Positions 2 to 20,000 of a stretch of 20,000 bases of DNA are shown here, in pieces; position 1 is the stretch's first letter, and every line of letters starts with the position of its first letter. The notes under the pieces are model-generated. The model ran no database searches. It was not told where the DNA came from and was given only the letters and a program-made list of their open reading frames with translations. Where the stretch lies: IMG/VR virus record IMGVR_UViG_3300030330_002209, positions 47,244 to 67,243 of that record, one strand, 5' to 3'. The position numbers and the translations under genes are program-made. This stretch comes from an uncultured virus (IMG/VR IMGVR_UViG_3300030330_002209). Taxonomy: Duplodnaviria; Heunggongvirae; Uroviricota; Caudoviricetes.

Positions 2-2779
2 GACTTTGACGAAACACTAATTGACAAAGGAGAAAACTTTATTATAGCTAGAAAAGACGGACAAGAAGTTAAGATTAGTTCTGGTCAATGGCCTATACAA
101 GGGCCTCAATATGCGGCTGACGGTTGGACTTTTGATTTTACAGATTTTGTAAATGTAAGAGGTGGTATTGAAGGACCGCTATTACAAAAAATGAGAAATC
201 AAATTAAAAAGTATGGACCAGAGAACGTATATGTTTTAACAGCTAGACCTGCTGAGTCTGCTACAGCTATACACGGTTGGCTAAAAACTAAAGGCATAAA
301 CATACCTTTAAAAAATATTACTGGCCTAGGCAATAGTACTGGCGATGCTAAAGCTGCTTGGTTTTTAGAAAAGTATGCAGAAGGCTATAATGATATGTAC
401 TTTGTTGACGACGCTTTACCAAACGTAGAGGCTGTTAAACACGTGTTTGATCAACTAGATATTAAAGGTAAGTCTGTTATTGTAAGACCTAGATATAGCC
501 TTGACCCAGAGTCAAAGCTTAATGAAATGTTAGAGCGTAGCAAGGGCGTTGATAGAAACCAAACTTTCAATAGAGTTCAAGCAAGAAATAAAGGTAAAGG
601 AAATAGAATAAGACAATTATTTATACCACCTAGCGCAGATGACTTTGAAGGTTTAATGTACTATAACTATGGTAAAGGAGAGCAAGGTAATGCTGATGCT
701 CAATTTTTCAAAGAAATGTTTTTTGATCCGTATAATAGAGCGGATAGAGAGCTTGACATGTATAAGCAGACGTTAAGAGAAGATGTTATGGCTATTAAAA
801 AGCAATTTCCAAAAGTTGCTAAAAAGCTTAACAAAGACTTTGCTAAAACTGGCTATACTAACGAGCAGGCTATGCGTATATACATATACAACAAATACGG
901 ATATGAAGTTCCTGGCATGTCTTTTGAAGAGGTTACTGCTATAGCAGAAGCTGTAGCAGCAGACTCTGAAATGGCTGCGTTTGCTGATCTAATGGACAAA
1001 GCAATGAAGATGGACTTTTACGTTCAACCAAGATTAGGTTGGAACGCCAGCTCTTTCAATGGTGATATGGCTGATGCTGCTAGAGCAAAAAGAGAAATAT
1101 TCTTACAAGAGTGGGTAGAAAATATAGACGCTACTTTTACTCCTGAAATGCTTAACAAGCTAGAAGCTATACATGGCTCTGGCTATAGAAGTGCTCTTGA
1201 AGACTCGATAGCTCGTATGAAGTCTGGAACTAATAGACCTACAATTAAGAATAAACAAGTTAATAATTTCTTAGACTGGCTAAACGGTTCTGTTGGTGCT
1301 ATTATGTTCTTTAATGCTAGATCTGCTGTACTACAGACTTTATCTACAGTTAACTTTATTAACTTTGAAGACAACAATGTGTTTGCAGCTGCTAGAGCGT
1401 TTGGTAACCAAAAACAATATTGGGCAGACTTTGTGTTTTTGTTTAACTCTCCTATGCTTAAACAACGACGCGGCGGTATACAGTCTGACCTAAATGCTTC
1501 AGAGCTTGCTAGACTAGCAGAGAAAGGTGGTGTTAGGGCTGTTATAGGTAGATTACTTCAGTTTGGTTTTACTCCTACGCAGATAGCGGATAGCTTTGCT
1601 ATTGCGGCCGGTGGTTCTACATACTATAGAAACAGAGTTAATAAGTATGTTAAAGAAGGTATGAGTCAAACAGAGGCTGAAACAAGAGCGTTTGAAGACT
1701 TTCAAGAAATAGCAGAAGCTACTCAGCAGTCTAGTAGGCCAGATAAAATATCTCAAGAGCAAGCTTCGGTATTAGGTCGTTTGATACTAGCGTTTCAAAA
1801 TACGCCAATGCAGTATAACAGGCTTATAAAGAAAGCAGCGCTAGACTTAATTAACGGTAGAGGTGATTGGAGAAGTAATGTGTCGAGAATAATTTACTAT
1901 GGAGCTGCTCAAAATATTATATTCTCAGCCCTTCAAAACGCTTTGTTTGCTGTAATGTTTGATGATGACGATCAAGATGATGAGTTTTTAGATACTAAAG
2001 TACAAAGAATAGGTAATAGTACATTAGACTCACTTCTTAGAGGTTCCGGTATATATGGCGCTATATTATCTACAGCTAAAAATACCATCATGCGATTTAT
2101 GTATGAAAGAGAAAAAGGCAAACGAGCGGATCATGGTAGAACTTTAGTTGAAGCTTTAAATGTATCTCCACCTCTTGGTTCAAAAGCTAGAAAAATGTAT
2201 TCAGCTATGACTACAGATAAGTGGGATAAAGATATTTACGATAAAATACCTTTGTACAATATTGATAATCCTATATGGGCTGCTGCTGGTAACGTTGTAG
2301 AAGCTTTAACAAATATTCCAGCTGGACGTATACAAAGAAAAATATCTAATTTAAAAGCAGCTTTAGATAATGAGACTGCTACGTGGCAAAGATTAGCTTT
2401 ATTTTTAGGTTGGGACAAGTGGAGTTTAGGACTTGAAGAGCCAGAAGAAATAAAGCAAGCTGAAGAAGAAGCTAAAGAAGATAAAAAGAAAAAGAAAAAA
2501 GAAGATAAAAAGATAGAAGATAAACAAAAAGAGCAAGAGTTTTTACAAGATCAAAAAAGAGAAAAAGAAGAAGGAGAAAAGCCTAGATGTGCTGCTGTCA
2601 CTAGAAGCGGAACAAGATGTAAAGGAACTCCTGTAGACGGAACCTACTGTACTATACATACAAAAACAGAAAAAAGGAGTGATGGTAAAGAAGTACAATG
2701 TAAAAAAATAAAATCTAACGGTGATCGCTGTAAGATGAAAACAACAAATAAATCTGGATTATGTTATTATCACGACTAA
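2..2779 (+). CDS. Giant virion/ejection-type (polyvalent) protein, 5'-truncated: HAD-superfamily phosphatase domain, long helical region, charged linker and two C-terminal CCCH zinc fingers
   Basis: The frame is open from position 2 (DFDETLIDKGENF...GPLLQK) into the listed ORF at 191, so the gene begins upstream of the window. HAD motifs DFDET, LTAR, K (DAKAAW) and FVDD are present. The helical C-terminal half (QQSSRPDKIS...AFQNTPMQY) resembles phage ejection proteins. It ends with C-x9-C-x9/10-C-x2-H twice. Confidence 0.7.
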   Translation, partial: DFDETLIDKGENFIIARKDGQEVKISSGQWPIQGPQYAADGWTFDFTDFVNVRGGIEGPLLQKMRNQIKKYGPENVYVLTARPAESATAIHGWLKTKGINIPLKNITGLGNSTGDAKAAWFLEKYAEGYNDMYFVDDALPNVEAVKHVFDQLDIKGKSVIVRPRYSLDPESKLNEMLERSKGVDRNQTFNRVQARNKGKGNRIRQLFIPPSADDFEGLMYYNYGKGEQGNADAQFFKEMFFDPYNRADRELDMYKQTLREDVMAIKKQFPKVAKKLNKDFAKTGYTNEQAMRIYIYNKYGYEVPGMSFEEVTAIAEAVAADSEMAAFADLMDKAMKMDFYVQPRLGWNASSFNGDMADAARAKREIFLQEWVENIDATFTPEMLNKLEAIHGSGYRSALEDSIARMKSGTNRPTIKNKQVNNFLDWLNGSVGAIMFFNARSAVLQTLSTVNFINFEDNNVFAAARAFGNQKQYWADFVFLFNSPMLKQRRGGIQSDLNASELARLAEKGGVRAVIGRLLQFGFTPTQIADSFAIAAGGSTYYRNRVNKYVKEGMSQTEAETRAFEDFQEIAEATQQSSRPDKISQEQASVLGRLILAFQNTPMQYNRLIKKAALDLINGRGDWRSNVSRIIYYGAAQNIIFSALQNALFAVMFDDDDQDDEFLDTKVQRIGNSTLDSLLRGSGIYGAILSTAKNTIMRFMYEREKGKRADHGRTLVEALNVSPPLGSKARKMYSAMTTDKWDKDIYDKIPLYNIDNPIWAAAGNVVEALTNIPAGRIQRKISNLKAALDNETATWQRLALFLGWDKWSLGLEEPEEIKQAEEEAKEDKKKKKKEDKKIEDKQKEQEFLQDQKREKEEGEKPRCAAVTRSGTRCKGTPVDGTYCTIHTKTEKRSDGKEVQCKKIKSNGDRCKMKTTNKSGLCYYHD

Positions 2780-3795
2780 TAGTTATATTGGTTTTAATAT
2801 GTAGCACGGCTAGTGCTCAAACGTTAAAAAAAGCTTTTAAGTTTTCTACGTTCTACGTAGCGGCTAACGGTAACACATCGCTGGCTGATAGAGATATATA
2901 CTCTGTGCAAGATGGCGCTGTGCTGTATGATACGGTGTTTACTCCATTTGACTATTCGTTAGTTATGGGTATACGTAAGATAAAACGTTTTCAATACGAA
3001 GGCACGTCACCATTTAAAGATGGTACTGAATCTGCTTACGGAGATGCTGCTAGTGTAGGTTTATCGCCGTTTGAATACTTGTTTGAAATAGATTATAAAC
3101 GTCAAGAGGGTATAGAATATATAGATCAACAACATTTCATTAGATACGCTAAAAACAAATGGTTGGCTAAAGTAGAATATGTTAAAGACGGTTTTGCAGA
3201 TATAGAGTATTTTGAAAGCACACAGAGACTAAGGTTGCGAGGTAAAAAGAAGTTGTCTTTTAATATAGGCGCAGTACAAAGGTTAGCCGAGCCTTATGGA
3301 TTTGATCCGTTAGAGCAGTGGCAACTTGAAAACAATTACTTACATTATACATGTCTAGCTATTGAAGAAGGTTATTCAGTAGACGTATATGAAAACGAAT
3401 ATAAAGATCCTGACGGTAATATAGTAGCAACTAGCGCTGATGTTTGGAAGCAAGTTGTTATACCTGAAGTCTTAGAAAATTATGTTGAAAAGAAAAGAAA
3501 CGAACTACCTAATCAATGGCAACAGTCTTTAGTTGTTGGCTTTGATTATTATCATTATACTAAAAACTTTTGGTTACATAGCTGGGGTAATTTAATGCCT
3601 TATCACTATGATGATGGTAACAGTTATTCATATCATAATTTCGTTGGAGGACAGTGGTATGATTATTCAGGTGGTTTAATATTTGGAACTAAAATAAATA
3701 AACATTTAGGCTTGTTTGTTGAAGGCAAGTATAATAAGTACTGGAATCGTGAGTGGTACGATTTTAAGTGCGGTATCAACTATGTAATATTCTAA
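2761..3795 (+). CDS. Putative outer-membrane beta-barrel protein with signal peptide
   Basis: Sec signal peptide ending ASA|Q. Many amphipathic, aromatic-rich strands (SLVVGFDYYHY, NFWLHSWGN, LGLFVEGKY). The C-terminal strand FKCGINYVIF ends in Phe, like a BAM beta-signal. Confidence 0.65.
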   Translation: MLLSRLIVILVLICSTASAQTLKKAFKFSTFYVAANGNTSLADRDIYSVQDGAVLYDTVFTPFDYSLVMGIRKIKRFQYEGTSPFKDGTESAYGDAASVGLSPFEYLFEIDYKRQEGIEYIDQQHFIRYAKNKWLAKVEYVKDGFADIEYFESTQRLRLRGKKKLSFNIGAVQRLAEPYGFDPLEQWQLENNYLHYTCLAIEEGYSVDVYENEYKDPDGNIVATSADVWKQVVIPEVLENYVEKKRNELPNQWQQSLVVGFDYYHYTKNFWLHSWGNLMPYHYDDGNSYSYHNFVGGQWYDYSGGLIFGTKINKHLGLFVEGKYNKYWNREWYDFKCGINYVIF

Positions 3796-3798
3796 GGT

Positions 3799-4077
3799 AT
3801 GGCAACTGAAATAGGTAAAGACACAAAAGTAAAATTAAGCTTGGAAACTATCATTTCTCTAGGAGTTGTGTTAGTAAGTATGACTGGCATGTGGTTCACG
3901 CTTCAAGCAGATATTGCTGAAGCTAAAGAACTTCCTGAACCACCAGCTCCAGAAGTTACACGTATGGAATTTCAAATGAAAGATGAAATGATACGTAACA
4001 CTATCATGACAACCCAAGAAGACGTTAAAGAAATTAAAGAGTCTATTGGAAAAATAGAAGACAAACTCTATCAATAA
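3799..4077 (+). CDS. Small single-pass membrane protein with C-terminal coiled coil (holin/spanin-like or cassette accessory)
   Basis: One hydrophobic segment (IISLGVVLVSMTGMWFTL), a Pro-rich linker and a heptad tail (VKEIKESIGKIEDKLY). TAATG-coupled to the next gene. Confidence 0.55.
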   Translation: MATEIGKDTKVKLSLETIISLGVVLVSMTGMWFTLQADIAEAKELPEPPAPEVTRMEFQMKDEMIRNTIMTTQEDVKEIKESIGKIEDKLYQ

Positions 4078-4421
4078 TGAAAGTTTGTATAGCAAAATAC
4101 TTGTATGCGCTAATCATGATATTAGTGTTTACAGCAGCTACAGCTTTTAGTCAAGTAAAAGTAATACACTTTAATGCTGGCTGGAACTCAGCAAACGACG
4201 TTGAGTGGTTTAATAAACTGTCAGATGCTGGTAAGAAAAGCTTAAGTATAGACGATCAAAATATACAAAAAAAATATGCTATTGCTATTGTACCTACTAT
4301 CATTGTGTTTGATGACGGCGAAGAAGTAAAACGTTTTCAAGCAGACCTTAGTTTTAAGATGGTTGCAACTCGCGAAGAAATACAAGAATATATAGACGAA
4401 CTTATTATAAGTAAATTCTAA
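4077..4421 (+). CDS. Exported thioredoxin-fold protein lacking CxxC
   Basis: Signal peptide ending AFS|Q. VIHFNAGWNSAN aligns with the thioredoxin VDFWAxWCxxC motif. KKYAIAIVPTIIVFDDGEEVKRF matches the cis-Pro loop and beta hairpin. The mature part has no Cys. Confidence 0.75.
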   Translation: MKVCIAKYLYALIMILVFTAATAFSQVKVIHFNAGWNSANDVEWFNKLSDAGKKSLSIDDQNIQKKYAIAIVPTIIVFDDGEEVKRFQADLSFKMVATREEIQEYIDELIISKF

Positions 4422-6418
4422 TGAAGAGATTATTTACATTTTTATTTTTATTTAACATTGCTTTTGCTCAGTGTCCTCCAAACACTTGGGGTTTAAATGT
4501 TACTATAAACCCTGACCAATATCCACAAGAAACATCTTGGTATATTATGACTTTCTTTGGTGATACACTTTTAGAAGGCGGGCCATATACTAACATAATA
4601 GACTATGAACCACAGTATGCTAGTATTTGTTTACCTGTTGATAGTTTTTACTTTGTATTAAACGACACATACGGAGATGGTGTAGCAGGTAGTTTATGGG
4701 GTGGTAACGATGGCTCTGTGTACATAGAACAATGTGGTGACACGTTGTGGGAGCTGCCAGTAGCAGACTTTGGCAATCAAATATGGGACGTAATATATAC
4801 GTCTGGTTGTCCTCCGCCACCGCCAGTGTTTGGTTGTATGGACTCTAGCTATGTAGAGTTTGACATAGCAGCTACAGCAGACACAGGTATGTGTTTCACG
4901 CCAAAAATATATGGTTGTACAGACTCACTAGCGTATAATTATATAGACTCAGCTAATACAGATATAAATATAGATAGCTGCATGCATGAGTTAGAATTAA
5001 CAGATTTAGCTGGTAACGGTTGGGCTGGATCTAGTTTAAAGTTAGCGCAAGCTACAAGTTTAATACCACCGTTTAATTATCAAGACATCGGCACGTACAC
5101 ATTGCTAGATGGTTTTGATACTACGTTTTTCGTAAACTTAGCAGCAGGATATCCTGTTAGAGCGGTATTTGAAATAACACAGCAGTCAGATTTTACTGCG
5201 GTGCAATGCGGTTATAGCTTATACTCTGAAGATTATGTATCTATAGATATTGAAGGAGGTTTTGTAAATCCTATACCACCATTTTTCCCTATTATAGGTG
5301 AACCATATTGTGGTAATACTTGTGTTGAAAGAGTTTATGGCTGCACAGATGTAGCAGCTTTAAACTACAACGCTTTAGCTAACACTGATGATAGTACTTG
5401 TTACTACTTAGTGGGTTGTACAAACCCTATATATTTGGAGTATAATCCTGCAGCTGATTATGATGATGGTAGCTGCGCTACGCTAGTTGTTGTTGGTTGC
5501 ATGGATTCTACTGCTTTTAATTATGATCCAGCCGCCAACGTAGAACTAGCAGGCTCTTGTATACCTACAGTACTAGGTTGTATGAACGAGTTTGCTTTTA
5601 ACTATAATCCATTAGCAAACACACCTGATACTTGTATAGCTGTTGTTGAAGGTTGTATGGATGCCACGGCAATGAACTATGATTCATTAGCAAATGTAAG
5701 CGATAACTCTTGCATTTACTATGCTTATGGCTGTACAGATCCAACGGCATTTAACTATGATCCGCTGGCAAACACAGACGATGGTAGTTGTGTAGAAGTA
5801 GTTTACGGTTGTATGGACGCAACAATGTTTAATTTTAATCCTGACGCTAACACAGACAATGGCAGTTGTATACCTTTTTACTATGGTTGCATGGACAGTA
5901 CCGCGCTCAATTACGATGACGATGCTAACACTGATAACGGTTCTTGTGTCTATGCTATTTATGGTTGCAATGATCCGACTGCTATTAACTACGATCCGCT
6001 TGTTAACACACCTGACTCAACATGTGAATATTCTGCTGGTTGCGCTATTGGTGACGTCTATACTTTACCTAATGATTGTTTTGCTTGGGTTATAGAAGTT
6101 GACGAATATTGTTGTGATGTAGCTTGGGACCCTGGTTGTATTAGTTTATACGAATATTGTCAAGACGGTTGGTCAGGCCCTACAGATATAATAGAGATTA
6201 GATATGGCCTTATTACATATCCAAATCCTACAAGTGATTATATATACATAAATAGTAGATTAAAAGTTGACATTACAGTCATTAATATGCTGGGGGATAT
6301 AGTTATATCTAAGAAAAAAGTTAATGTCTTAGATGTCTTTAAATTAACTCCTGGCGTATACAATTTAATAATTGAACACGAAAATATAAAAGTTAATAAA
6401 AAAATAATAAAAAAGTAA
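4421..6418 (+). CDS. Secreted Cys-rich repeat protein with type-A T9SS (Por secretion) C-terminal sorting domain
   Basis: Signal peptide ending AFA|Q. N-terminal domain of the type DQYPQETSW...NDTYGDG. Eleven GC[TMN][DN]...C repeats. The C-terminus YPNPTSDYIYI...VINMLG...LTPGVYNLII...KKIIKK has the YPNP, G, GxY and KxxK hallmarks of type-A CTDs. Confidence 0.85.
   Translation: MKRLFTFLFLFNIAFAQCPPNTWGLNVTINPDQYPQETSWYIMTFFGDTLLEGGPYTNIIDYEPQYASICLPVDSFYFVLNDTYGDGVAGSLWGGNDGSVYIEQCGDTLWELPVADFGNQIWDVIYTSGCPPPPPVFGCMDSSYVEFDIAATADTGMCFTPKIYGCTDSLAYNYIDSANTDINIDSCMHELELTDLAGNGWAGSSLKLAQATSLIPPFNYQDIGTYTLLDGFDTTFFVNLAAGYPVRAVFEITQQSDFTAVQCGYSLYSEDYVSIDIEGGFVNPIPPFFPIIGEPYCGNTCVERVYGCTDVAALNYNALANTDDSTCYYLVGCTNPIYLEYNPAADYDDGSCATLVVVGCMDSTAFNYDPAANVELAGSCIPTVLGCMNEFAFNYNPLANTPDTCIAVVEGCMDATAMNYDSLANVSDNSCIYYAYGCTDPTAFNYDPLANTDDGSCVEVVYGCMDATMFNFNPDANTDNGSCIPFYYGCMDSTALNYDDDANTDNGSCVYAIYGCNDPTAINYDPLVNTPDSTCEYSAGCAIGDVYTLPNDCFAWVIEVDEYCCDVAWDPGCISLYEYCQDGWSGPTDIIEIRYGLITYPNPTSDYIYINSRLKVDITVINMLGDIVISKKKVNVLDVFKLTPGVYNLIIEHENIKVNKKIIKK
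5339..6025 (+). repeat. Tandem array of nine ~26-aa GCxD-type Cys-bracketed coding repeats; two more copies lie at 4832-4981
   Basis: Examples: GCTDPTAFNYDPLANTDDGSC, GCMDATMFNFNPDANTDNGSC, GCMDSTALNYDDDANTDNGSC. Period is about 78 nt and the copies are diverged at DNA level. Confidence 0.9.
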
Positions 6419-6768
6419 TGGCAGTACTATCAGTTCAAGATATTACGGAAGCTGGTTTAACACCTTCGTTTGCAGCTGCTACTAACGGCACTGACAACGT
6501 TATAAACACTGGTGTTGAGTTTTTAGTAGTTAAAAACGGGCATGGCTCTGCTACTAGGACAGTTACCGTTACAGCGCAGACAACAAGTGTTGTTGATGCT
6601 ACGTTTGGCGTGTTAGCTAAAAGTAATATAGCTAAAACAATAGCGGCTGGTGCTGAAGCATATATAGGTCCTTTTCCTGTAGCTGCTTTTAACAACGCTA
6701 GTAGTCAAATAGTCATTACATACTCAGATTCAGCTGCCGACATAACGATCGGAGCTTTTAAATTATAA
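6418..6768 (+). CDS. Small beta-rich putative virion structural/decoration protein
   Basis: 116 aa, rich in Ala/Thr/Val, no signal peptide. The pattern NTGVEFLVVKNG...TVTV...IAAGAEAYIGPF resembles phage head-associated proteins. Confidence 0.5.
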   Translation: MAVLSVQDITEAGLTPSFAAATNGTDNVINTGVEFLVVKNGHGSATRTVTVTAQTTSVVDATFGVLAKSNIAKTIAAGAEAYIGPFPVAAFNNASSQIVITYSDSAADITIGAFKL

Positions 6769-6787
6769 AGATTAAAACAATAATAAA

Positions 6788-7159
6788 ATGGCAACATTAA
6801 CACCAACATTAACATTAGCTAGTACAGACGCTACTTCTGACACTGCTTTTACTTTTACAGTAACAGATGCTTTAACAGTAGACAACGCTGGTCCTTTTCA
6901 AGGCTTATCTAGAAAAACTATAACAACTGCAGATAATCAAGAGCTAGTAGACGAAGCAACTAGTGGAGTATTTTACTTCTATGCTAAAAACATTGACACA
7001 ACTAACTTTGTAGTACTTCAAACTACAGCTAGTGTTCAGTATGCTAGACTAAGCCCAGGAGAATTTTGCTTTTTTCCTATAAACGATGGAGCTGGTTTAG
7101 AAGCTAGAGCTGATACTGCTAGTTGTGTTTTAGAATTTGCGTTCTTTAAAAAAGGATAA
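6788..7159 (+). CDS. Small beta-rich putative virion structural protein
   Basis: 123 aa, Thr/Ala-rich, starts MATLTPTLTL, with YFYAKN...RLSPGEFCFFP motifs of a beta-sandwich type. It lies in the late-gene arm. Confidence 0.5.
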   Translation: MATLTPTLTLASTDATSDTAFTFTVTDALTVDNAGPFQGLSRKTITTADNQELVDEATSGVFYFYAKNIDTTNFVVLQTTASVQYARLSPGEFCFFPINDGAGLEARADTASCVLEFAFFKKG

Positions 7160-7626
7160 TGCAGTTAGAAGTATTAAGATTTAGTTCTCAAGCTGACTCT
7201 ACATCTGGTTTGTTATTTGAGTTAACAGACTTAGGTAGAAAGTTCATGTGTTACACGCTTGAAGACGAGCGTAGAGCTTTAAAAGTAAAAGGTGAAACAC
7301 GTGTACCTGCTGGTACTTATAAAATTGAATTAAGAACTGAAGGTGGTTTTCATGGTAGATACACTAAGAAATATCCTGGTATACACCGTGGTATGCTTCA
7401 TATCACTGATGTTCCTAACTTTGAGTATATTCTTATTCATACCGGAAACACCGATGAGCACACGGCAGGGTGCCTTATTGTCGGTGACGCGCAAGAAAAC
7501 AATTTACTTTTACCCGATGGTTTTGTTGGTAAGAGTGTTAATGCTTATAAGAGAATATATCCGTCTATTGCGAAAGCAATTGCAGACGGAGAAGAAGTAA
7601 CAATAACATATAAAGACTACGACTAA
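7159..7626 (+). CDS. DUF5675-like protein with YkuD/L,D-transpeptidase-like His-Cys motif; putative endolysin
   Basis: CYTLED, VPAGTY and ILIHTGNTDEHTAGCLIVG match the family pattern (HxGN...TxGC). Confidence 0.75.
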   Translation: MQLEVLRFSSQADSTSGLLFELTDLGRKFMCYTLEDERRALKVKGETRVPAGTYKIELRTEGGFHGRYTKKYPGIHRGMLHITDVPNFEYILIHTGNTDEHTAGCLIVGDAQENNLLLPDGFVGKSVNAYKRIYPSIAKAIADGEEVTITYKDYD

Positions 7627-7847
7627 TGGCGTACAAGATGAAATATAAAGGGTACATTGGCAAAGGAAAATCACCAATGAGAATTTTAGGGATGAGTAGA
7701 GAAGAGCAGCTAGATAAGCAGCATGAAGATAAAATTAAAAAAGATAAACAAGTTCTAGAAGAACAAAAATTAACAACTGATATAGCTGAACTAGATAAAA
7801 GATTTAGAGATGCTATGGTAGTTAATCCTGCTTCTAGAAATAGGTAA
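7626..7847 (+). CDS. Small hypothetical protein with MAYKMK leader
   Basis: 73-aa ORF, TAATG-coupled to the upstream gene and abutting the next. Confidence 0.6.
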   Translation: MAYKMKYKGYIGKGKSPMRILGMSREEQLDKQHEDKIKKDKQVLEEQKLTTDIAELDKRFRDAMVVNPASRNR

Positions 7848-8225
7848 ATGGCTTACATACAAAAAAATAATCCATTTCCAGTTACGCCTTGCGGTAGACG
7901 TAGAGCTGGTGGTATTGGTAAAGGCTTTAACAGTAGCTTTACTAAGAAGCCTGATGTACGTAGAACAATAGGTCCTGGTAAAAACTTTAATAAAGCAAAA
8001 TCAACTGGCACCGGTGGTGCTGCTGGTGGCGGTATGACACAGAAAGGTGTTGATGAGTATAAAAGAAAAAACCCAGGTAGCAAACTACAAACAGCTGTTA
8101 CAACTAAACCATCTAAACTAAAACCAGGTAGCAAAGCTGCTAAGCGTAGAAAAGCTTTTTGCGCTAGATCTAAAAAATGGAAAAGTAAAAGAGGTTTAGC
8201 TGCTAGACGCAGGTGGAACTGTTAA
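7848..8225 (+). CDS. Basic Lys/Arg/Gly-rich phage protein (DUF6321-like)
   Basis: GGMTQKGVDEYKRKNPGSKLQTAV...RRKAFCAR...RRRWNC is a pattern I recall from marine phage proteins; not verified by search. Confidence 0.6.
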   Translation: MAYIQKNNPFPVTPCGRRRAGGIGKGFNSSFTKKPDVRRTIGPGKNFNKAKSTGTGGAAGGGMTQKGVDEYKRKNPGSKLQTAVTTKPSKLKPGSKAAKRRKAFCARSKKWKSKRGLAARRRWNC

Positions 8226-8236
8226 AATATATAGAC

Positions 8237-8656
8237 ATGGCTTTTAAAATGAAAAACAAAGAACTTAAAAAAATTATTGGCGAACTTAAAAACGCTAGTA
8301 AACTACACGCTGGCCAAGCTGAAAAACTAGAAGATATGTCTAGCTCAAGCGGGTCTCCGTTAAAAAAAATATCTGCTGCTTGTAAAGCTGCTGCAAAACG
8401 TAAGTTTAAAGTTTGGCCATCTGCTTACGCTTCTGGTTGGGGTGTTAGATGTACTAAAGCTGGTGGGCCTGGTAAAATGGGTAAAGGTAAAAAGAAGTCA
8501 TCATTAAAAGTAGGACCTAGAGGACAAGGAGGTATTTATAATCCTAGAACTCAACTAGATCTATACAAAAAAGGAATTACTGTAGCGGGAACTAAACCTA
8601 CTGCAAAAGAAACTTCTACTACAACAGAAACTACAGAAGTCAAAAAAGATGCTTAG
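8237..8656 (+). CDS. Basic modular phage protein with KVWPSAYASG motif
   Basis: The start is better placed at 8237 (MAFKMK) than at 8213, which overlaps the previous gene. Contains the module CKAAAKRKFKVWPSAYASGWGVRC. Confidence 0.6.
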   Translation: MAFKMKNKELKKIIGELKNASKLHAGQAEKLEDMSSSSGSPLKKISAACKAAAKRKFKVWPSAYASGWGVRCTKAGGPGKMGKGKKKSSLKVGPRGQGGIYNPRTQLDLYKKGITVAGTKPTAKETSTTTETTEVKKDA

Positions 8657-8918
8657 CCCTATACAGAAAAAGAAAACAGCTAAGTCTATTACATGGCATG
8701 ATTCAGACGCGCCTGACGCAAAAGGTAAGTTTAAAAGTTTATCGCCATCAGCTCTCGCTAGTTGGTTAATTAAAACTAGAAAAGGTAACTTACAAAAAGT
8801 AATTAGTAGTTTAAATCAACAGTACGTTTTTAATAGACAAAAAAATCCTAGCTATGCTCGCAAGATGAGAGCAACCATGAACATAGTGAGGAGAAGATTA
8901 AAAAAGAAAGATGAGTAA
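8649..8918 (+). CDS. Basic hypothetical protein
   Basis: 89-aa Lys/Arg-rich ORF with 8-nt overlaps to both neighbours. Confidence 0.6.
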   Translation: MLSPIQKKKTAKSITWHDSDAPDAKGKFKSLSPSALASWLIKTRKGNLQKVISSLNQQYVFNRQKNPSYARKMRATMNIVRRRLKKKDE

Positions 8919-10152
8919 AGCTTATAGAGGTGTATTAAAAGCTCGTATATCAAAGCTGTATGGTGGAGATGTAACTATAGCTAAAGCTAAAGCTTTAAAA
9001 AATAGAAAAGATGCTACACCTAGAGATAAGCAATTAGCAAATTGGTTTATTAACATGCAAACAAACAGGCCTTCATTTAAAAAGTTTAGCTTAAAAGGTT
9101 TTGACTACAACATGAAGTCACCGCCTAAAGATCACTCGCCTGAAACTTTAGCTGAAATAAAAGAGCTAACTAAAATACCTGACAACGATAAGTTTGTTAA
9201 ATCAAAAGATAAAGTTAGAGATTCTTTCAAAGAATTATTTGATAAAGAAGGTATTGAATATCCTAAACAGCTTGTAGATGATATGATAGACGAAGCAGAT
9301 CCTATCATCATGAAGTTTAAAAACAAGTTTAAAAGACCAAGACCTAAAAAAATTGCTGATAAAAAAGGTATCAAGATAAATTACCTTGAACTTAAAACAA
9401 TGAAAACACCTTCATATCCTTCTGGCCATAGTACAAGTTCTAAACTTATAGCCGAGGTGTTAGGTAAAAAATATCCCAAGCTTAAATCTAAGCTTAACAA
9501 AGTAGCAGAAGATATATCTTATAGTAGAAATGTAGCTAAAGCGCACTACAAATCAGATAGTGAAGAAGGTAAAAAACTAGGTAAAGCTATGAGCGATTAC
9601 GCATCGTCGTTTACAAAACGAAAAGATCCTGTGGTTGGTACAGGTAAAAAGCCAAAAGGCTCTGATAGACGTTTATACACAGACGAAAATCCCAAAGACA
9701 CTGTATCTATTAAGTTTGCAACTGTTGCTGATGCTAGAGCTACTATAGCTAAAGTAATGAAGATAAACAAACCTTACGCTCGTAAGATACAAATACTAAC
9801 AGTATTAGAACAACGAGCTGAAGTTATGGGTAAAATGCAACAAGCTAGACTTGCTAAAGCTGCTAAGAAAAAATTAAAAGCTCAAAAAGAAAAATCACCT
9901 ATGACAAAACAAAAAGGCGGTGGTACTAAAAAGGTTTGTTTACCAGCTGCTAAAGTTCGTAGTATGTCTTCTTCAGAGCGAGCTAGTGTTGTAAGAGCTA
10001 AAAGAAAAGCCGCTGCTGGCGGTAAGTATAAAAGATCTAGTAAGTCAAACGTCAAAGGCGCTAGGAAAAAAGGAGCTACACTAAGAGACTGGTTTGAAAA
10101 AGAAAACTGGGTACAAGTTGGTAACCCAAGTAAAAAGTGTGGAGAAAAATAA
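8911..10152 (+). CDS. Basic multi-module protein with PAP2/haloperoxidase-superfamily phosphatase domain
   Basis: All three PAP2 motifs are intact: K-x6-RP (KNKFKRPRP, 9319-9345), PSGH (9418-9429) and SR-x5-H-x3-D (SRNVAKAHYKSD, 9523-9558). Three additional Lys-rich modules flank the domain. Confidence 0.8.
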   Translation: MSKAYRGVLKARISKLYGGDVTIAKAKALKNRKDATPRDKQLANWFINMQTNRPSFKKFSLKGFDYNMKSPPKDHSPETLAEIKELTKIPDNDKFVKSKDKVRDSFKELFDKEGIEYPKQLVDDMIDEADPIIMKFKNKFKRPRPKKIADKKGIKINYLELKTMKTPSYPSGHSTSSKLIAEVLGKKYPKLKSKLNKVAEDISYSRNVAKAHYKSDSEEGKKLGKAMSDYASSFTKRKDPVVGTGKKPKGSDRRLYTDENPKDTVSIKFATVADARATIAKVMKINKPYARKIQILTVLEQRAEVMGKMQQARLAKAAKKKLKAQKEKSPMTKQKGGGTKKVCLPAAKVRSMSSSERASVVRAKRKAAAGGKYKRSSKSNVKGARKKGATLRDWFEKENWVQVGNPSKKCGEK

Positions 10153-10375: not shown

Positions 10376-12244
10376 TTAAAGATTAGTTACTTCACAGCTA
10401 CCACCAGCACAAGCAAGCTCGCCTGATAGATCTGTGTTATCGTTCATTTCTACCACATTTTCAAGATTAACTATAGATAAATGTTTCATACGCTCATTAT
10501 ACTCTTTTTTAGATATGTCTTCAAACGGAGCTTGAGTATATGTACCACCATCATAAGGCAACACTGATAAACCGTTGTAGCAGTCACGGTTATTCCACAT
10601 CCACTCACCAGCTTTATCCCACTCATCTTCTTTTAAAGATATTGTAGCAGATACATTGTGAGTGTTGCTTCCAGCTCTGTGGCCAGGCTTAACCCACTCA
10701 TCAGAAACTTGTTTAACTCTTTCGAGTAAATCAAACGCGGACTCAGTTCGGACAATAGAACCTTTTGGCGCGTGTTGTGGTATTTCAATTACAGCGGTAT
10801 CGTGTGGTCTGAAATATTCATCTTTGATTAACTCAGGAAGATGAACCGATAGATACGAATATATCGCTTCGTTTTTTCCTACGCGTAATCTACGAACATA
10901 ATAATCATTATGCCACGCATGAATACCGGATGAAGTTCCGAGTACCAGAGAAGTCGTCCCTGCAGGCTTCACGCAGGTTGTACGTGCAGCTTTATTAATG
11001 CCAATTAACTTAGCTACTCTTGTGTTTTCACGTTTTACCATCTCTGCGGCTTTCTTCATATCAAGCTCTAGCACCTTTTTAGAAGCTATCCCTGTCATTG
11101 ATACACCAATGAGAGCGTCTTTTTCAGTTGTCTCTCTCCAGACTTCACGTAAATAATGAAAGTCTGTGTAACCAGCTTGCAATGTACCTATAAACGCAGC
11201 AGCCTTAACTCTTGTGTTAAGATCATCTTGATCTGCTACATCTGATACATTAACTTCACATAAGTTACAAAACTGATAAGGACGTAATGCTATTTCACAG
11301 CACGGGTTTGTACCCCAGTCTTTATCGTTATTAAGGTAGATACCAGGCTCACCTGAACCAGACAGCTCAATACGTTTCCATAAGTCCATAAAGAACTCTT
11401 TTGTAATTTTGTGTCTAATAAGTACAGCTGAGTTATTAGCTCTACCACGCTGTGGGTTTGTTTCCCACCAGCTACCTGACTTACAGGCAATCATTTCTTC
11501 ATCATAAGCTGAAAACAAAGATATTAAAGCTGCCCTTCTAATGCCGCCAGCAAGTACAGCGTCAGCAATGTGGCAAATAATATCATGAGCTTCAAGAGTT
11601 GTGAGTTTTGTTCCGTCTTCTTTTGCATCTAATATACCTTGAATTTTAACTAAACATTCCTTTAATGGTTGAGGTCCTGGCGCTTTGCCTCCAGAGGTCA
11701 CAAGTCTAGCCCCCTTTGGTCTAATATCAGAATAATCAAACTTGATCTTAGATGATCTCTTAGAGCCCAAATAAGACTTAATTAAAACCTTAACTGCATC
11801 AGACCAACCTTCAATACTATCGCCAATAACAAAACGTCTTTCACGTTTGGTAAATGGTTTAATAATTGATGGTAGTTGCTTTACGTGGTGATGTTGTACT
11901 GAATAACCAACACCACAGCCAGACAATAATAAGAACATACACTCGTTAAAAGAGTCTATAGAGTCAATAGGTAAATATGAACAGTTATACAACCTGTTAG
12001 GTGATAACTCAATTGGCTTACCTGAAAACTGAAGGCTACGCATGGAAGGCAAAACCTTCTTAGCGTAAACCAACTTATATACGTTCTCAATATCGTCAGC
12101 TAACTTAGGATATTTTTTTTGATGCATCTCTTTATTACGAGTTACAAGCTCTTCCCAAGNNNNNNNNNNCTCTCTCCTATTTAATTCAGGAATATATTTA
12201 GCGTACTTCATGTGTACGGTAATATCCGACAATATATCTTTCAT
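10376..12244 (-). CDS. nrdJ: Class II (adenosylcobalamin-dependent) ribonucleotide reductase, monomeric RTPR-like
   Basis: Motifs LPSMRSLQ, NC, GCGVG, GGIRRAA, TNPCCEI (radical Cys), VKPAGT and C-terminal redox Cys pair ACAGGSC. No adjacent beta-subunit or activase gene. Contains a 10-N gap at 12160-12169. Confidence 0.9.
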   Translation of the reverse strand: MKDILSDITVHMKYAKYIPELNRREXXXXWEELVTRNKEMHQKKYPKLADDIENVYKLVYAKKVLPSMRSLQFSGKPIELSPNRLYNCSYLPIDSIDSFNECMFLLLSGCGVGYSVQHHHVKQLPSIIKPFTKRERRFVIGDSIEGWSDAVKVLIKSYLGSKRSSKIKFDYSDIRPKGARLVTSGGKAPGPQPLKECLVKIQGILDAKEDGTKLTTLEAHDIICHIADAVLAGGIRRAALISLFSAYDEEMIACKSGSWWETNPQRGRANNSAVLIRHKITKEFFMDLWKRIELSGSGEPGIYLNNDKDWGTNPCCEIALRPYQFCNLCEVNVSDVADQDDLNTRVKAAAFIGTLQAGYTDFHYLREVWRETTEKDALIGVSMTGIASKKVLELDMKKAAEMVKRENTRVAKLIGINKAARTTCVKPAGTTSLVLGTSSGIHAWHNDYYVRRLRVGKNEAIYSYLSVHLPELIKDEYFRPHDTAVIEIPQHAPKGSIVRTESAFDLLERVKQVSDEWVKPGHRAGSNTHNVSATISLKEDEWDKAGEWMWNNRDCYNGLSVLPYDGGTYTQAPFEDISKKEYNERMKHLSIVNLENVVEMNDNTDLSGELACAGGSCEVTNL

Positions 12245-15014: not shown

Positions 15015-16726
15015 TATTCCCAAGGCATTGGCTCAGCTTCGGCTTCAGTACCAACGTGCGGTACAAAGCAGCCAGAGCGTGGCTCCCACGTAAAAAAAGA
15101 CTCAGCTCCGTTTTCACCGAGGTTTTGAAACTTAACTTTAAGAACTTTAACCTTAGTCGTTTTAGCTTCATAATCTCTATGAACTAGTAAGCCGTGATAA
15201 CTAGCATCATACCACTCACCACCACCTTTAATATTATACATTGTTGGCTCTTCCATTTTACCGTCTTGGCCTTTGTACATTTTAGTTGGGTGTGCTACAA
15301 TGAAAGTTAAGACGTCATACTTTTTACAGAACGTTTCTATCTTTTGTAGGTAATCCATCGTATAACGGTTGACATCATCTGAGTTAGCGTTTGTATCTCT
15401 AATCTTGTTAAATGGATCAAGAACTAAACATTTAATACCTTTACGTTTAACGAGCTCAGCGCCCTTGCGTAATACTGCTTCTAAATTGTATTTGTCCATA
15501 TCAATAAAAAAGTAGTTGTCATTAACATGTTCAGTAACTTGTTCCCATTTATTACCACCAATGTCGCCTACGGCTGGCATGTCTTGCCAATGTTTACGCA
15601 TTAGTTTGTGCGCGTGTAGATAGACTGGTTGGTTTTCTGGACTAGCATACGCAGTCTTCCAACCGTAAAGTTGATTATAGCCCACAACCATTTGGTCAAC
15701 AAAGTCAGACTTCCCGCTACTGGGTACGCCAGTAACAGTAATAAACTGACCGGTGTAAGTAGAGAAAATAGAATCAAAGTTCTTAAGTCCGATTTGAAAG
15801 CCGGGCTTAAACCCATTTTTAACAAAGTCTTTAAGTTCATCTTCAATATCCCTTAATGTAGACACGCCTTCAAGAGGTACGGGTCTAACGTTATCAATAA
15901 CATGTCTGAGAGCAGACTTTCCATACTTAACTAAATAATCGTTTGCGTCTTTACAATCATCGAAATCGACTAGATAACAAACCTCAGCACCAAGACGACG
16001 AATAAATTCTTGTCGTAATGCTTGACCAGCTTCATCAGCGTCTACCGCTAATATAACTTTTTCTTTGTCATCAAAATAGTCTATGCAATTATCTAAATAA
16101 TCGAGGTTGTTTGAGTTTAACGTAGCACCATTAGGTACTGATATAACGTTTTTAACTCCCGCTTCGTGCATTGCAAGCACGTCCATCTCACCTTCAACTA
16201 TGACACAAGTATCATAACCAACAATACTATTTATGTTGTAAAATACTTTTTCAGCTCCTTTATATAACTTAAAGTTTTTACGACCATCACGGTATTTAAT
16301 GTTTATGAGTTGATCACCCATGTAATAGTTAAACTGAATGGTATTTTCAGTCTTACCTGTTTGTGGCATAAACTCTTGGCCTTCACCTATACACAGGTCA
16401 GCCAAGGTTTGTTTAGTTATGCCGCGTTGTTTAAACCACTCTTCAACTTTAGTACTAGTAGGATTAAACTCAACCTGCGGTCGAGCATAAACTTTTTCGC
16501 TAGCACCTTTACGTTGATACGTGTGTAGTTGAAAACTAGTATCACAATTATGACAGGTACCAAGACCACGTTCCCAATCATAAGAAGCGCATTTAGCTTT
16601 CTTATTTTCAGGCTTCCTAGTGTGAGAACACAAAGGGCAAATACCCTGTGTCTTCCCAACTTCTAGGCCATGCTGATTGAACTCGTCAATCGCAAATCCA
16701 TTGATCTCTCTGTCTTGTACGTTCAT
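15014..16726 (-). CDS. Bifunctional DNA primase-helicase (T7 gp4/Twinkle-like)
   Basis: Zinc-binding CPLC...CHNC, TOPRIM EGEMD and DADEAG, SF4 helicase Walker A GVPSSGKS, LVLDP, VAHP and KVKF. Confidence 0.92.
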   Translation of the reverse strand: MNVQDREINGFAIDEFNQHGLEVGKTQGICPLCSHTRKPENKKAKCASYDWERGLGTCHNCDTSFQLHTYQRKGASEKVYARPQVEFNPTSTKVEEWFKQRGITKQTLADLCIGEGQEFMPQTGKTENTIQFNYYMGDQLINIKYRDGRKNFKLYKGAEKVFYNINSIVGYDTCVIVEGEMDVLAMHEAGVKNVISVPNGATLNSNNLDYLDNCIDYFDDKEKVILAVDADEAGQALRQEFIRRLGAEVCYLVDFDDCKDANDYLVKYGKSALRHVIDNVRPVPLEGVSTLRDIEDELKDFVKNGFKPGFQIGLKNFDSIFSTYTGQFITVTGVPSSGKSDFVDQMVVGYNQLYGWKTAYASPENQPVYLHAHKLMRKHWQDMPAVGDIGGNKWEQVTEHVNDNYFFIDMDKYNLEAVLRKGAELVKRKGIKCLVLDPFNKIRDTNANSDDVNRYTMDYLQKIETFCKKYDVLTFIVAHPTKMYKGQDGKMEEPTMYNIKGGGEWYDASYHGLLVHRDYEAKTTKVKVLKVKFQNLGENGAESFFTWEPRSGCFVPHVGTEAEAEPMPWE

Positions 16727-16727
16727 A

Positions 16728-17030
16728 CTAGAATGGTAAGTCTTCTTCTACTTGCTGTGGAGCTGGCGCTGGTCGATCTTCTCTTGGAGCAGTATCAACA
16801 TTATTACCGTTAGTCCATACAACTTTTACATTGCCAAGGTATGTTTTAGGAGTCTTAGCATCTCTCTCCTCTTTTGATTGCTCAACAACTACAGGGCCTT
16901 GATTACCGAACTGATCGGGCTCATCATTTAGTGTAATTGTAATAGGTAAGTATTTACCCTTTTTACCTACATAGATTTTATCTTTAGGTATATCATTAAG
17001 GTTAATACTTGTTTTAATAATACTTGCCAT
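16728..17030 (-). CDS. ssb: Probable single-stranded DNA-binding protein
   Basis: Short beta-rich core, Pro-rich linker and acidic C-terminal tail EEDLPF. Located between the exonuclease/ERF pair and the primase-helicase. Confidence 0.7.
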   Translation of the reverse strand: MASIIKTSINLNDIPKDKIYVGKKGKYLPITITLNDEPDQFGNQGPVVVEQSKEERDAKTPKTYLGNVKVVWTNGNNVDTAPREDRPAPAPQQVEEDLPF

Positions 17031-17197
17031 TAGTAATTATTTATTTGGTTAAACATTCTTCTTAACTGATCTTTGCTGGCACCAGTAACTCTCCGTAAAT
17101 TATCAACAGCTTTAACATGGCTTTGATTTGTGTAAAAATTCTTTTCAGACGTTTTTAATCCTGTAACGTCACACACTCTAGTTTTAGTTCTAGGCAT
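17030..17197 (-). CDS. Small hypothetical protein (55 aa, below the ORF-track cutoff)
   Basis: MPRTKTRVCDVTGLKTSEKNFYTNQSHVKAVDNLRRVTGASKDQLRRMFNQINNY* fills the gap and is TAATG-coupled to ssb. Confidence 0.6.
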   Translation of the reverse strand: MPRTKTRVCDVTGLKTSEKNFYTNQSHVKAVDNLRRVTGASKDQLRRMFNQINNY

Positions 17198-17201
17198 TGG
17201 T

Positions 17202-17936
17202 TTAAAGGGTTTTAGTTAATAAATGTTGCTTGCTATCAAAATTATCTGTCTGATAAAACAGCTCGTACGCATCACAAGCTCTACGTACTTTATCTTCACC
17301 GCGACTATAAAAATCAGGCGAACAATCGAATAAACCTATTTGATGCGTTTCTTTGTCGATTACAATAAATAGCATTTCGTATCCAAATAAGGTTGAGTAT
17401 ATGAAAGCTTGACTGTCATAATTGAACTTGCTAGCTGACCATTGGAACCTATCAATATCGCTAGTTGTCTTCAGATCAATAACAAGTTTTTCTTCATGAT
17501 TTATTATATCAGCTTTACCTTTCCACATTTGACCGTGAATTTTGCCAACACGTGGCTCTTCATATTCTACTTCATTTAATACTGGTTTAATTAAGTCTCT
17601 ACAAACATCATTGTCCATAATAGCTTCAGTCATAAGCATAGTCTTATCGACTTCGTGTTGTAATAAACATAGCTCACCGTCACTAGCTTCTTTATATGCT
17701 TTAGTATTACGAGTTGTAGATTCAATAACTTTAAACCGTTTGAGTTTATCAGGCTCAAGTATTGCGGTATGAAAGTAACCGCCAACTAAAAACGCTGGAC
17801 TACTAGGTTTTGGTTTATGCAAGTCTTTAGGATTTTTAAGCAATACACTTATATCCGAGTTGCTTAGAAACTGTTTACCAAAATCACCGTAGTAATGTTC
17901 GTCGTCTCTTAGTTTAGTGTAAATTTCTTTTGTCAT
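17202..17936 (-). CDS. PD-(D/E)xK exonuclease (RecE/ExoVIII, DUF3799-like)
   Basis: LSNS, GGYFHTAILEP, KGKADII...IDLKTT and YDSQAFIY; adjacent to ERF. Confidence 0.85.
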   Translation of the reverse strand: MTKEIYTKLRDDEHYYGDFGKQFLSNSDISVLLKNPKDLHKPKPSSPAFLVGGYFHTAILEPDKLKRFKVIESTTRNTKAYKEASDGELCLLQHEVDKTMLMTEAIMDNDVCRDLIKPVLNEVEYEEPRVGKIHGQMWKGKADIINHEEKLVIDLKTTSDIDRFQWSASKFNYDSQAFIYSTLFGYEMLFIVIDKETHQIGLFDCSPDFYSRGEDKVRRACDAYELFYQTDNFDSKQHLLTKTL

Positions 17937-18478
17937 TAAGCTAGTTGTTTAATTTGCGCTGGCGTTAATTCATATTTCTTTTTAATAGCATCAACTGATC
18001 CGCCGTCTTTTACAAACTCAATAGCTTTAGTCATTTGCTCTTTAGTTATTTTAGCTTTCTTTTTAGCTGTAACTTGTTGAGCCTTACCGTGTTGATTAGT
18101 AGCGTCAGCATCTTCAGTATCATCAATTAAAAATAAATTACCAAGTGCATATTTTTTAGCATAGGTAGATGCTGCACCAAATTGTTGAGCAGTCTGCATA
18201 CCTTTCTGTTGAAGATCAACACCAACTACAGCTGTAGCATGTATTGAATCTTTACCGTCACTTATTGTAGCGGTTGTTTGTATCATAGGCATAGGTTCTG
18301 CGGCTATTAGCTCTTCTGATACTGTAACGTAAATGTTGTGTTGTAATAAAAATGGCTTTACGCCCTCTAGAATGTCTTCAGCTTTGCGGAAGTAGTATTT
18401 TCCAAAGCTATTATATGAAGACTTTTTTGCTTTTAACTTAGTCTGTACATCAGCTAGTTTTTTAGTTAATTCTGTCAT
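17936..18478 (-). CDS. erf: ERF-family single-strand annealing protein
   Basis: NSFGKYYFRKAEDIL...AQQFGAASTYAKKYALGNLFLIDDTEDAD is the ERF signature. Confidence 0.9.
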   Translation of the reverse strand: MTELTKKLADVQTKLKAKKSSYNSFGKYYFRKAEDILEGVKPFLLQHNIYVTVSEELIAAEPMPMIQTTATISDGKDSIHATAVVGVDLQQKGMQTAQQFGAASTYAKKYALGNLFLIDDTEDADATNQHGKAQQVTAKKKAKITKEQMTKAIEFVKDGGSVDAIKKKYELTPAQIKQLA

Positions 18479-19916: not shown

Positions 19917-19926
19917 TAGCCTATTA

Positions 19927-19998: not shown

Positions 19999-20000
19999 AT

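Follow-up and report, generated by a model that had tools for sequence, protein, structure and literature searches.

We analysed a stretch of 20,000 nucleotides of viral DNA (the window), which represents bases 47,244-67,243 of the 67,243-bp IMG/VR virus record IMGVR_UViG_3300030330_002209, and focused on a block of four genes in it whose products are designated p344, p92, p114 and p665; the first three are referred to as the trio. The DNA appears to come from an uncultured marine podophage of ~63-67 kb, with the window forming the right end of its late arm. This phage is related to the Flavobacterium Elemovirus and to Cellulophaga phages, and its host would belong to the Bacteroidota since the host uses a type IX secretion system (T9SS). 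An earlier reading of this DNA (the original prediction) had proposed the block as a possible surface-display or chaperone module, in which an outer-membrane (OM) barrel of the phage serves a T9SS cargo protein.

The four-gene block and its products

As had been proposed, the four genes are tightly coupled (Table 1). The open reading frames (ORFs) of p344 and p92 are separated by a gap of 3 nt (TAA GGT ATG), and stop and start codons of the following genes overlap as TAATG at 4077 and 4421. The ATG of p344 in turn overlaps the 3′ end of the upstream 3155-aa ORF by 19 nt. Since further TAATG overlaps are found at 6418 (p665/p116) and 7159 (p123/p155), the coupled string extends into p116, p123 and p155.

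Table 1. Position and assignment of the block genes and of p155 in the window
Gene	Position	Strand	Assignment
p344	2761..3795	+	outer-membrane beta-barrel (predicted)
p92	3799..4077	+	single-pass inner-membrane protein (predicted)
p114	4077..4421	+	signal peptide and thioredoxin fold without CxxC
p665	4421..6418	+	Cys-repeat protein with T9SS type A sorting domain
p155	7159..7626	+	DUF5675, candidate endolysin, same operon

The possibility, raised alongside the original prediction, that the block is a chimeric host insertion is excluded by Logan contigs that match the window without a mismatch and bridge both block ends. They cover 1708-2856 or 1500-2853 at the border between the giant gene and p344, and 6328-6802 or 6383-6813 at the border between p665 and p116. 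Because exact contigs, which stem from four marine runs of two studies, span them, both borders are real. The same runs also contain joints from 3794 to 7848 (p344 stop to the DUF6321 gene) and from 4421 to 8237 (p114 stop to the next basic-protein gene). These joints match an alternative gene order in three related loci (L002, L008 and L034), in which p344 is followed by the DUF6321 genes with p92-p114 further on. Within the population, the barrel gene can hence be separated from p92-p114.

The assignment to a late arm was likewise borne out. Pfam and PHROG scans identified GroEL/GroES, the large terminase (phrog_6681), the portal (phrog_6547) and virion proteins on the plus strand, with the terminase, portal and virion genes upstream of the block on the same strand, and proteins of 2023 aa and 3155 aa are also encoded in this arm. 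The ribonucleotide reductase, ThyA, MazG, primase-helicase, Erf, exonuclease and sigma factor genes lie on the minus strand. When compared by terminase, the closest deposited phages are a freshwater podovirus (62% identity) and the Flavobacterium Elemovirus (45%), followed by Cellulophaga, Tenacibaculum and Maribacter phages. In both the Elemovirus and the freshwater podovirus the late arm stops at the giant protein and the four-gene block is absent. A megablast search of the whole window against deposited phages returned a single match of 76 nt, which is of chance size.

The original prediction had further claimed three Sec signals that are cleaved before Gln, and the N-termini indeed read ...STASA↓QTLK, ...TAFS↓QVKV and ...IAFA↓QCPP. 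Export of the block products is also supported by their relatives, whose N-termini differ in sequence and remain signal-like. In agreement with the proposed distribution over four envelope layers, all four products look exported, and they are predicted to reside in the inner membrane, the periplasm, the OM and on the cell surface.

For p344, we predict an exported OM beta-barrel of 12-14 strands. The AlphaFold2 model of the protein, built from 37 sequences, reached a predicted local distance difference test (pLDDT) score of 75.0 and a predicted template modelling score of 0.68; it is all-beta with 13-14 long strands and has an insert at approximately residues 177-250 that contains a long helix. 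Comparison of this model with the PDB by Foldseek gave 31 matches at E ≤ 1e-3, all of them OM barrels among the matches listed; the best was NanC (2.7e-6), but with low TM-scores of 0.34/0.51. An independent structural aligner (VIA-align wide) placed the EstA barrel first (Z 11.2, 192 aa, 4.5 Å), followed by Tsx (10.8), NalP (10.7), NanC (10.7) and KdgM (10.5). The transmembrane barrel of the original prediction is thus the class that the model, Foldseek and the second aligner all arrive at, by prediction in each case.

The sequence of p344 ends in Phe (...GINYVIF), and the final residue of its relatives is F, L, R or Y. A signal peptide, a closed antiparallel barrel and an aromatic C-terminal residue, by which OM barrels are recognized, are therefore all present in p344 as predicted features. 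A signal-like N-terminus is found in all 78 full-length relatives: 53 carry an x-x-x↓Q site, 21 possess a lipobox together with a PKxCC motif, and the remaining four also end in Q as judged by eye. In database scans p344 matched no Pfam (E ≤ 0.01), PHROG or NCBIfam family, and a profile of the barrel had 0 matches to PDB sequences at E ≤ 10. Few polar residues are invariant in the wider barrel family (E105 and R156), with H273 and E321 conserved at 90%. We also considered the barrel as an enzyme resembling OMPLA or LpxR, both of which occur among the structural matches with Z 8.4-8.5, and set this possibility aside as unsupported, given that the wide alignment keeps no set of the Ser/His/Asp type.

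The p92 protein possesses one hydrophobic segment in a hydropathy scan (approximately residues 11-34), which follows a short N-terminus and precedes a linker rich in Pro; the C-terminal tail of ~45 residues is charged and conserved. In an alignment of 25 relatives, 15 columns are invariant and mostly located in this tail. This sequence pattern predicts a bitopic protein of the inner membrane. Scans with Pfam, PHROGs and NCBIfam, the spanin families of Pfam and PHROGs among them, gave no match for p92, and its gene always adjoins that of p114.

For p114, the original prediction of an exported, Cys-less thioredoxin proved apt, in that the fold is found and the CxxC redox site is not. A profile of 33 relatives matched thioredoxin 2vim in the PDB (E 6.7e-8) with a 5-residue gap exactly at CGPCR. 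At E ≤ 1, 31 of the 33 family members match PF00085, the best of them with 5e-8; p114 of the window itself gives E 0.018, which does not reach the curated cut-off. The alignment reads FNAxWNxxN with a gap where CGPC lies, N33 and N37 being invariant. Mature p114 contains 0 Cys, and 73 of 75 relatives have N-termini of the Q type.

The p665 protein consists of a signal peptide (MKRLFTFLFLFNIAFA↓Q), two beta-sandwich-like modules, about ten Cys-bearing repeats of ~30 aa and a C-terminal sorting domain; the mature protein contains 35 Cys. A type A sorting domain occupies residues 600-665: PF18962 matches at residues 600-663 with 35.7 bits against a cut-off of 27 and TIGR04183 with 32.4 bits against a cut-off of 23, the type A model being the only one that matches. 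The claim that p665 is a T9SS cargo is therefore credible, its domain lying above both curated cut-offs. Among 30 relatives, 24 match PF18962 at E ≤ 0.01, 17 of them above the cut-off, and a signal-like N-terminus is present in 59 of 67 p665-like ORFs. A model of the first 320 residues (pLDDT 62.3) shows two beta-sandwich regions and had 0 Foldseek matches to the PDB at E ≤ 1e-3, with only generic sandwich folds below that level. The relatives range from 600 to 1130 aa and differ in their N-terminal modules, whereas the trio is highly conserved (67% mean column identity).

The ~30-aa Cys repeat (GCxDxxAxNY...DDGSC) is confined to p665 in the window's genome. In relatives, 2-6 copies occur in 15 large proteins (1082-1588 aa) without signal peptide, which are encoded in the structural region (loci L033, L039, L041, L042, L046-L051, L120, L124, L125, L131 and L132) and are probably fibres or other virion proteins. 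Pfam gave only weak, sub-threshold T4_Y03C matches for the repeat in these relatives. Since its repeats recur in large, apparently virion proteins, p665 probably binds something on the cell surface.

Distribution and gene neighbourhood of the trio

Relatives of p344 were found on 424 IMG/VR stretches, and 80 loci were kept for counts in the p344 clade. In 79 of these the p344 ORF was called, and p92 is present in 74, p114 in 75 and a p665-like ORF in 67 of the 79, most misses being at locus ends. The claimed co-occurrence of the genes in related phages thus holds. The barrel family comprises 3550 clusters at 90% identity with 396 representatives at 50% identity; for the best 120 of the 3550 clusters, the sole name is 'hypothetical protein' and the longest contig measures 66 kb. 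A search of one genome each of 185,579 prokaryote species yielded six barrel loci, all in metagenome-assembled genomes or uncultured bins, labelled as Sphingobacteriales, Parvibaculum, Nitrosopelagicus, Flavobacteriales, Rickettsiales and 'uncultured bacterium'. Since such discordant labels are the pattern of mis-binned phage contigs, the family looks phage-only and uncultured. No barrel was found by tblastn of three family members (that of the window, P0133 and P0166) in 50,697 deposited phage records.

We fetched 86 more IMG/VR loci, on contigs of 5-169 kb, with two distant barrels of full length (P0150 and P0133), which are 30-33% identical to p344. According to hidden Markov models (HMMs) derived from our alignments, 85 of these loci contain the barrel, 71 the thioredoxin fold and 69 the membrane protein. 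The trio hence recurs across barrel clades that share 25-39% identity, and it is complete in 141 of 172 loci overall. Two other distant barrels, P0250 and P0166, found no IMG/VR locus when used as queries, and an alignment of 19 distant barrels was too diverse for scanning. Judged from this sequence distribution, p344, p92 and p114 appear to form one conserved, phage-only unit.

An HMM of the sorting domain had 0 matches in the 86 loci of the two other barrel clades, the model being derived from the window's clade only so that it may miss divergent domains; seven representatives of the adjacent proteins in these clades had no Pfam match. As the trio recurs in two clades without a detectable sorting-domain cargo, it seems to be independent of T9SS cargo. 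The p665 protein may thus be a lineage-specific accessory that is replaced in other clades by other Cys-rich exported proteins. In 75 loci (within L100-L179), a Cys-rich exported protein of 190-305 aa is encoded between the barrel and the membrane protein, in the place of p665. It carries a ...W(E/D)DCVDASDE motif, which by eye resembles class A repeats of the low-density lipoprotein receptor, and has no Pfam or PHROG match.

To characterize the surroundings of the trio, we clustered the 1337 ORFs that lie within four genes of it in the 172 loci, scanned 82 cluster representatives with Pfam and compared 19 proteins (16 neighbour ORFs, p92 and two ORFs of the window's genome) with PHROGs. The recurrent neighbours are listed in Table 2. 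A typical order in clade 2 (locus L151) is barrel, Cys-rich protein, two-transmembrane (two-TM) protein, membrane protein, thioredoxin fold, M15 endolysin and 3-TM holin.

Table 2. Recurrent neighbours of the trio
Gene or product	Family match	Loci	Place
Peptidase_M15_3	phrog_894 endolysin, 8e-31	28	26 directly after the thioredoxin gene
DUF5675	PF18925	38	before or after the trio
PG_binding_1 + Amidase_2	Pfam	4	≤4 genes from the trio
3-TM holin	phrog_3427, 2e-30	40	≤4 genes from the trio
Two-TM protein of ~70 aa	no family match	47	in most cases between the barrel gene and that of the membrane protein
Second two-TM protein	phrog_9987 holin, 5e-4	7	inside the trio
Staphylococcal-nuclease (SNase)-type nuclease	Pfam, PHROGs	29	≤4 genes from the trio
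Cys-rich exported protein	no match	75	place of p665
Pro-rich lipoprotein of 61-63 aa	no match	6	directly after the barrel

For quantification we considered a locus evaluable if its trio was complete and flanked by four or more ORFs on both sides, which applied to 65 of 141 loci. An endolysin-class gene lies at most four genes away in 34 of the 65 (M15_3 in 18, DUF5675 in 14 and Amidase_2 in 2) and a holin-like gene is nearby in 36; either of the two is present in 46 loci and neither in 19. When the barrels are grouped into lineages by single linkage at 72%, an endolysin-class gene is nearby in 5/8 and a holin-like gene in 7/8 lineages. The nearby endolysins belong to three unrelated families, and more telling for the linkage than the counts is that the trio stays constant while both the type of endolysin and the side on which it lies switch. 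Since the steady companions of the trio are lysis genes, the neighbourhood points to lysis more than to the surface remodelling originally suggested.

Two further neighbours were observed. A ~120-aa SNase homologue (PF00565, 1e-9; phrog_452, 2e-35) without signal peptide is encoded beside the trio and follows the thioredoxin gene in L017, L063, L078, L104, L112 and others. The Pro-rich lipoprotein looks like the outer subunit of a spanin (o-spanin); it forms a cluster of six in clade 2, with L102, L105, L107, L111 and L112 among the loci listed, and has no PHROG match.

In the window's genome, p155 is encoded 0.7 kb downstream of p665, is TAATG-coupled to p123 and belongs to DUF5675 (PF18925, E 1.1e-26; phrog_1501); it is the only recognisable candidate endolysin of the genome. 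According to the accessible part of a preprint (bioRxiv 10.64898/2026.04.11.717860), DUF5675 is C82-like, i.e. resembles an L,D-transpeptidase peptidase family, and was picked as a candidate lysin. In our comparison of p155 with the PDB, L,D-transpeptidases appeared at a non-significant E of 0.57. As another candidate endolysin, we considered the 265-aa ORF that follows the holin-like gene (genome 18159-18956) and rejected it: it has no Pfam or PHROG match, falls into virus-only clusters without family in the Atlas and matched only a short CagY repeat in the PDB.

A census of the 89 ORFs of the genome by hydropathy and lipobox found neither a lipoprotein nor a pair resembling spanins. Besides p344, p92 and p114, it flagged the holin-like protein, an ORF of 48 aa, a protein of 213 aa, and single internal hydrophobic stretches in MazG and in a virion protein of 236 aa, both of which look soluble; the signal of p665 is shorter and fell below the census threshold.

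A possible role in lysis and its alternatives

The explanation we favour, at a probability of a little under one half (about 0.48), is that the trio constitutes a lysis-linked envelope module, spanin-like in function and made of non-homologous parts, to which a T9SS accessory is added in particular lineages. Late in infection, the phage would make four proteins that leave the cytoplasm. p344 would be inserted into the OM as a beta-barrel, p92 would reside in the inner membrane with its conserved helical tail in the periplasm, and p114, as a redox-dead thioredoxin fold in the periplasm, might act as an adaptor, while p665 would be handed to the host T9SS as a disulfide-rich repeat protein. The trio would be the envelope-acting part of the lysis programme with one subunit per membrane: following the action of the holin and of the endolysin, which is probably p155 with its DUF5675 domain, it would breach or destabilise the OM. 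It would thus represent a functional analogue of a two-component spanin in which an OM protein replaces the small lipoprotein. The role in lysis is suggested by synteny, and contact among p344, p92 and p114 is likewise something we infer. A complex prediction with the mature barrel, the p92 tail and mature p114 scored 0.00 in two runs, which is no answer and speaks neither for nor against binding.

When compared with two-component spanins of the lambda Rz/Rz1 type, the trio likewise has, by prediction, an inner-membrane subunit with N-terminal transmembrane anchor and periplasmic tail together with an OM subunit, and its genes are adjacent, translationally coupled, located in or beside lysis cassettes and phage-only. 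However, the two share no sequence similarity, and the OM part of the trio is a 344-aa barrel instead of a lipoprotein of ~60 aa. p344 of the window lacks the lipobox of an o-spanin, although 21 of its 78 relatives appear lipidated with a Cys-bearing N-terminal peptide. The third obligatory member, the redox-dead thioredoxin fold, has no counterpart in spanins. The periplasmic tail of Rz is also much longer than that of p92. Since the barrel carries a signal for signal peptidase I, the thioredoxin fold is without counterpart and sequence similarity is absent, the trio is not a spanin by membership. In the available part of their study, Kongari et al. (2018, PMC6139136) report that no spanin was found in ~13% of the phages of Gram-negative hosts, Bacteroides and Croceibacter phages included, and note that 'an OMP could act as an o-spanin', OMP standing for an outer-membrane protein.

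Several points weigh against a role in lysis. All functional evidence consists of synteny and predicted folds, and no catalytic site stands out in the barrel family since few of its polar residues are invariant. p344 of the window, with its signal-peptidase-I type signal and no lipobox, is six times the size of an o-spanin, and the periplasmic part of p92 (~58 residues) is too short to cross the periplasm alone. The 19 of 65 evaluable loci mentioned above and 1/8 lineages (the P0150 clade) have no recognisable lysis gene within four genes. The locus counts are not independent trials because the loci are related and most fall into two large lineages, and as lysis genes and the trio both end late operons, some of the linkage may reflect shared timing only. 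The two-TM cluster of 47 loci is called holin-like from its topology alone. The lysin assignment of DUF5675 rests on structural similarity reported in the accessible part of the preprint, our own PDB search being non-significant. Finally, in the window's genome only the DUF5675 gene is near the trio; the holin-like gene (17735-18157, phrog_3427 at 2e-4) lies ~32 kb upstream of it, before the terminase.

The T9SS surface-display or remodelling module of the original prediction, in which p665 is carried by a barrel resembling PorP/SprF or PorV and p114 acts as chaperone of its Cys repeats in the service of superinfection exclusion, receptor masking or adhesion, is in our view quite unlikely as a whole. 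Its cargo part stands: p665 has a signal peptide and a type A domain above the cut-offs, which is kept in 24/30 relatives, and it is coupled to the trio here and adjoins it in most loci of the clade. The occurrence of the Cys repeats in 15 large structural-region proteins would also suit a surface-binding or receptor-masking role, a hint that leaves masking or adhesion alive for p665 alone. The partner barrel, in contrast, was not substantiated. p344 gave no PF11751 (PorP_SprF) match in the Pfam scan (E ≤ 0.01), and a six-frame search of the whole genome with this model returned 0 matches at E ≤ 1. Barrels of the PorP/SprF kind resemble p344 in that they are encoded beside a T9SS substrate, but according to the accessible text of PMC9143113 they anchor type B and not type A cargo, so that the pairing expected of them is not found with the type A protein p665. 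Moreover, the trio, including a barrel of the p344 family, occurs in 86 loci of two other clades without detectable sorting-domain cargo, it is highly conserved while p665 varies in length and N-terminal modules, and late, lysis-linked expression fits poorly with exclusion.

The original prediction had known of no described system of this kind. This holds for the trio, for which full-text literature searches found no describing publication, but not for phage-encoded T9SS cargo as such, for which the Cryophage offers a precedent that also favours display (Bellas et al. 2020, PMC7468147). As far as the available part of that paper describes it, a gene with a type A domain is likewise variable among related phages and its product presumably secreted by the host. 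Its cargoes are, however, glycoside hydrolases and a PA14 protein, whereas p665, encoded beside the trio, combines Cys repeats with two beta-sandwich modules that are unassigned; the available part of the paper makes no mention of a trio. p665 thereby widens the single published case of a phage-encoded T9SS cargo.

Less probable still is a lysis-timing pair, in which p92 is a single-TM holin of the T4 type or its partner and p114 a secreted periplasmic antiholin-like binder, the barrel being a sensor or unrelated. The model for such a pair is T4 T and RI, a holin and its periplasmic antiholin. The constant adjacency of p92 and p114 with their TAATG overlap, their topologies (a membrane protein with periplasmic tail and a small secreted protein) and the lysis-gene neighbourhood would all fit this arrangement. 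Yet the barrel belongs to the fixed set in 141/172 loci, and a holin/antiholin pair needs no OM part; many loci already have one or two other holin-like genes, and neither p92 nor p114 shows sequence similarity to any holin or antiholin family in Pfam and PHROGs. That the barrel is instead a phage porin or channel acting as auxiliary uptake or efflux gene, with the others as unrelated exported 'moron' genes clustering around it, is improbable, since in spite of the small substrate channels (Tsx, NanC, KdgM) and autotransporter barrels among its best structural matches and the existence of the cyanophage OMP-like Pfam family PF24653, of which it is only a distant feature-space neighbour (0.93, 151 shared features, under the level typical of true members), it has no match to PF24653 or a porin family at E ≤ 0.01, its three-gene association is fixed across clades, its very high conservation including the loops is unusual for a porin, and a channel leaves p92 and p114 without a role.

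Phage_OMP (PF24653) and lambda Lom share with p344 that a phage gene encodes a beta-barrel for the host OM, but p344 does not match the Phage_OMP model (Pfam, E ≤ 0.01). To our knowledge, both are encoded by single genes that lack partners of the membrane-protein and thioredoxin-fold kind and have no link to lysis cassettes.

If the spanin-like role in lysis applies, a wider version of it can be formulated, which we regard as doubtful. Thousands of marine Bacteroidota phages would then breach the OM by a third kind of machine, neither spanin nor disruptin, in which a dead thioredoxin links a barrel inserted by the beta-barrel assembly machinery to a helical protein of the inner membrane; the operon of some lineages would also display a receptor-binding-type repeat protein on the dying cell via the host T9SS, perhaps so that debris does not trap the progeny. 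The conserved and abundant trio is a concrete and testable candidate for the means by which Bacteroidota phages pass the OM at lysis. Its confirmation would bring a new architecture into the lysis toolkit of phages, give a lysis annotation to a large part of the flavobacterial phages of the ocean and offer a barrel-based OM-active module of interest to work on envelope biogenesis. The window contributes a clade in which the trio is coupled to a T9SS cargo and a DUF5675 candidate lysin, together with read-level proof that the block is genuine.

Other features of the genome

The 3155-aa ORF ahead of the block occupies window 2-2779 (genome 40555-50022). Its final ~70 residues are rich in Cys and His and give a sub-threshold DUF5763 match. 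The Elemovirus and the freshwater podovirus encode a giant 'structural protein' at the equivalent place. The genes that separate p665 from p155 (window 6418-7159) encode p116 and p123, which are small, Thr/Ala-rich proteins without signal peptides; p116 has a weak match to the 'tail protein' family phrog_16194 (1e-5), and 47 loci have p123-like genes in the vicinity of the trio. Window 7848-10152, where the late arm ends, encodes a series of small, very basic proteins (DUF6321, phrog_10346/727), which may be internal or ejected virion proteins. The last of the series is a 413-aa protein with a basic tail and a sub-threshold PAP2 match.

The first 3,734 bases of the record (genome 3-3734) and its last 3,733 (window 16268-20000) are 91% identical in one blastn alignment, and the same four ORFs (244, 180, 250 and 212 aa) are found at both record ends. 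The 'linear' record is thus probably a circularly permuted genome of ~63.5 kb that was closed on a second strain. The ribonucleotide reductase gene is interrupted by 10 consecutive N (window 12159-12169), and a second N run lies at genome 23770-23779.

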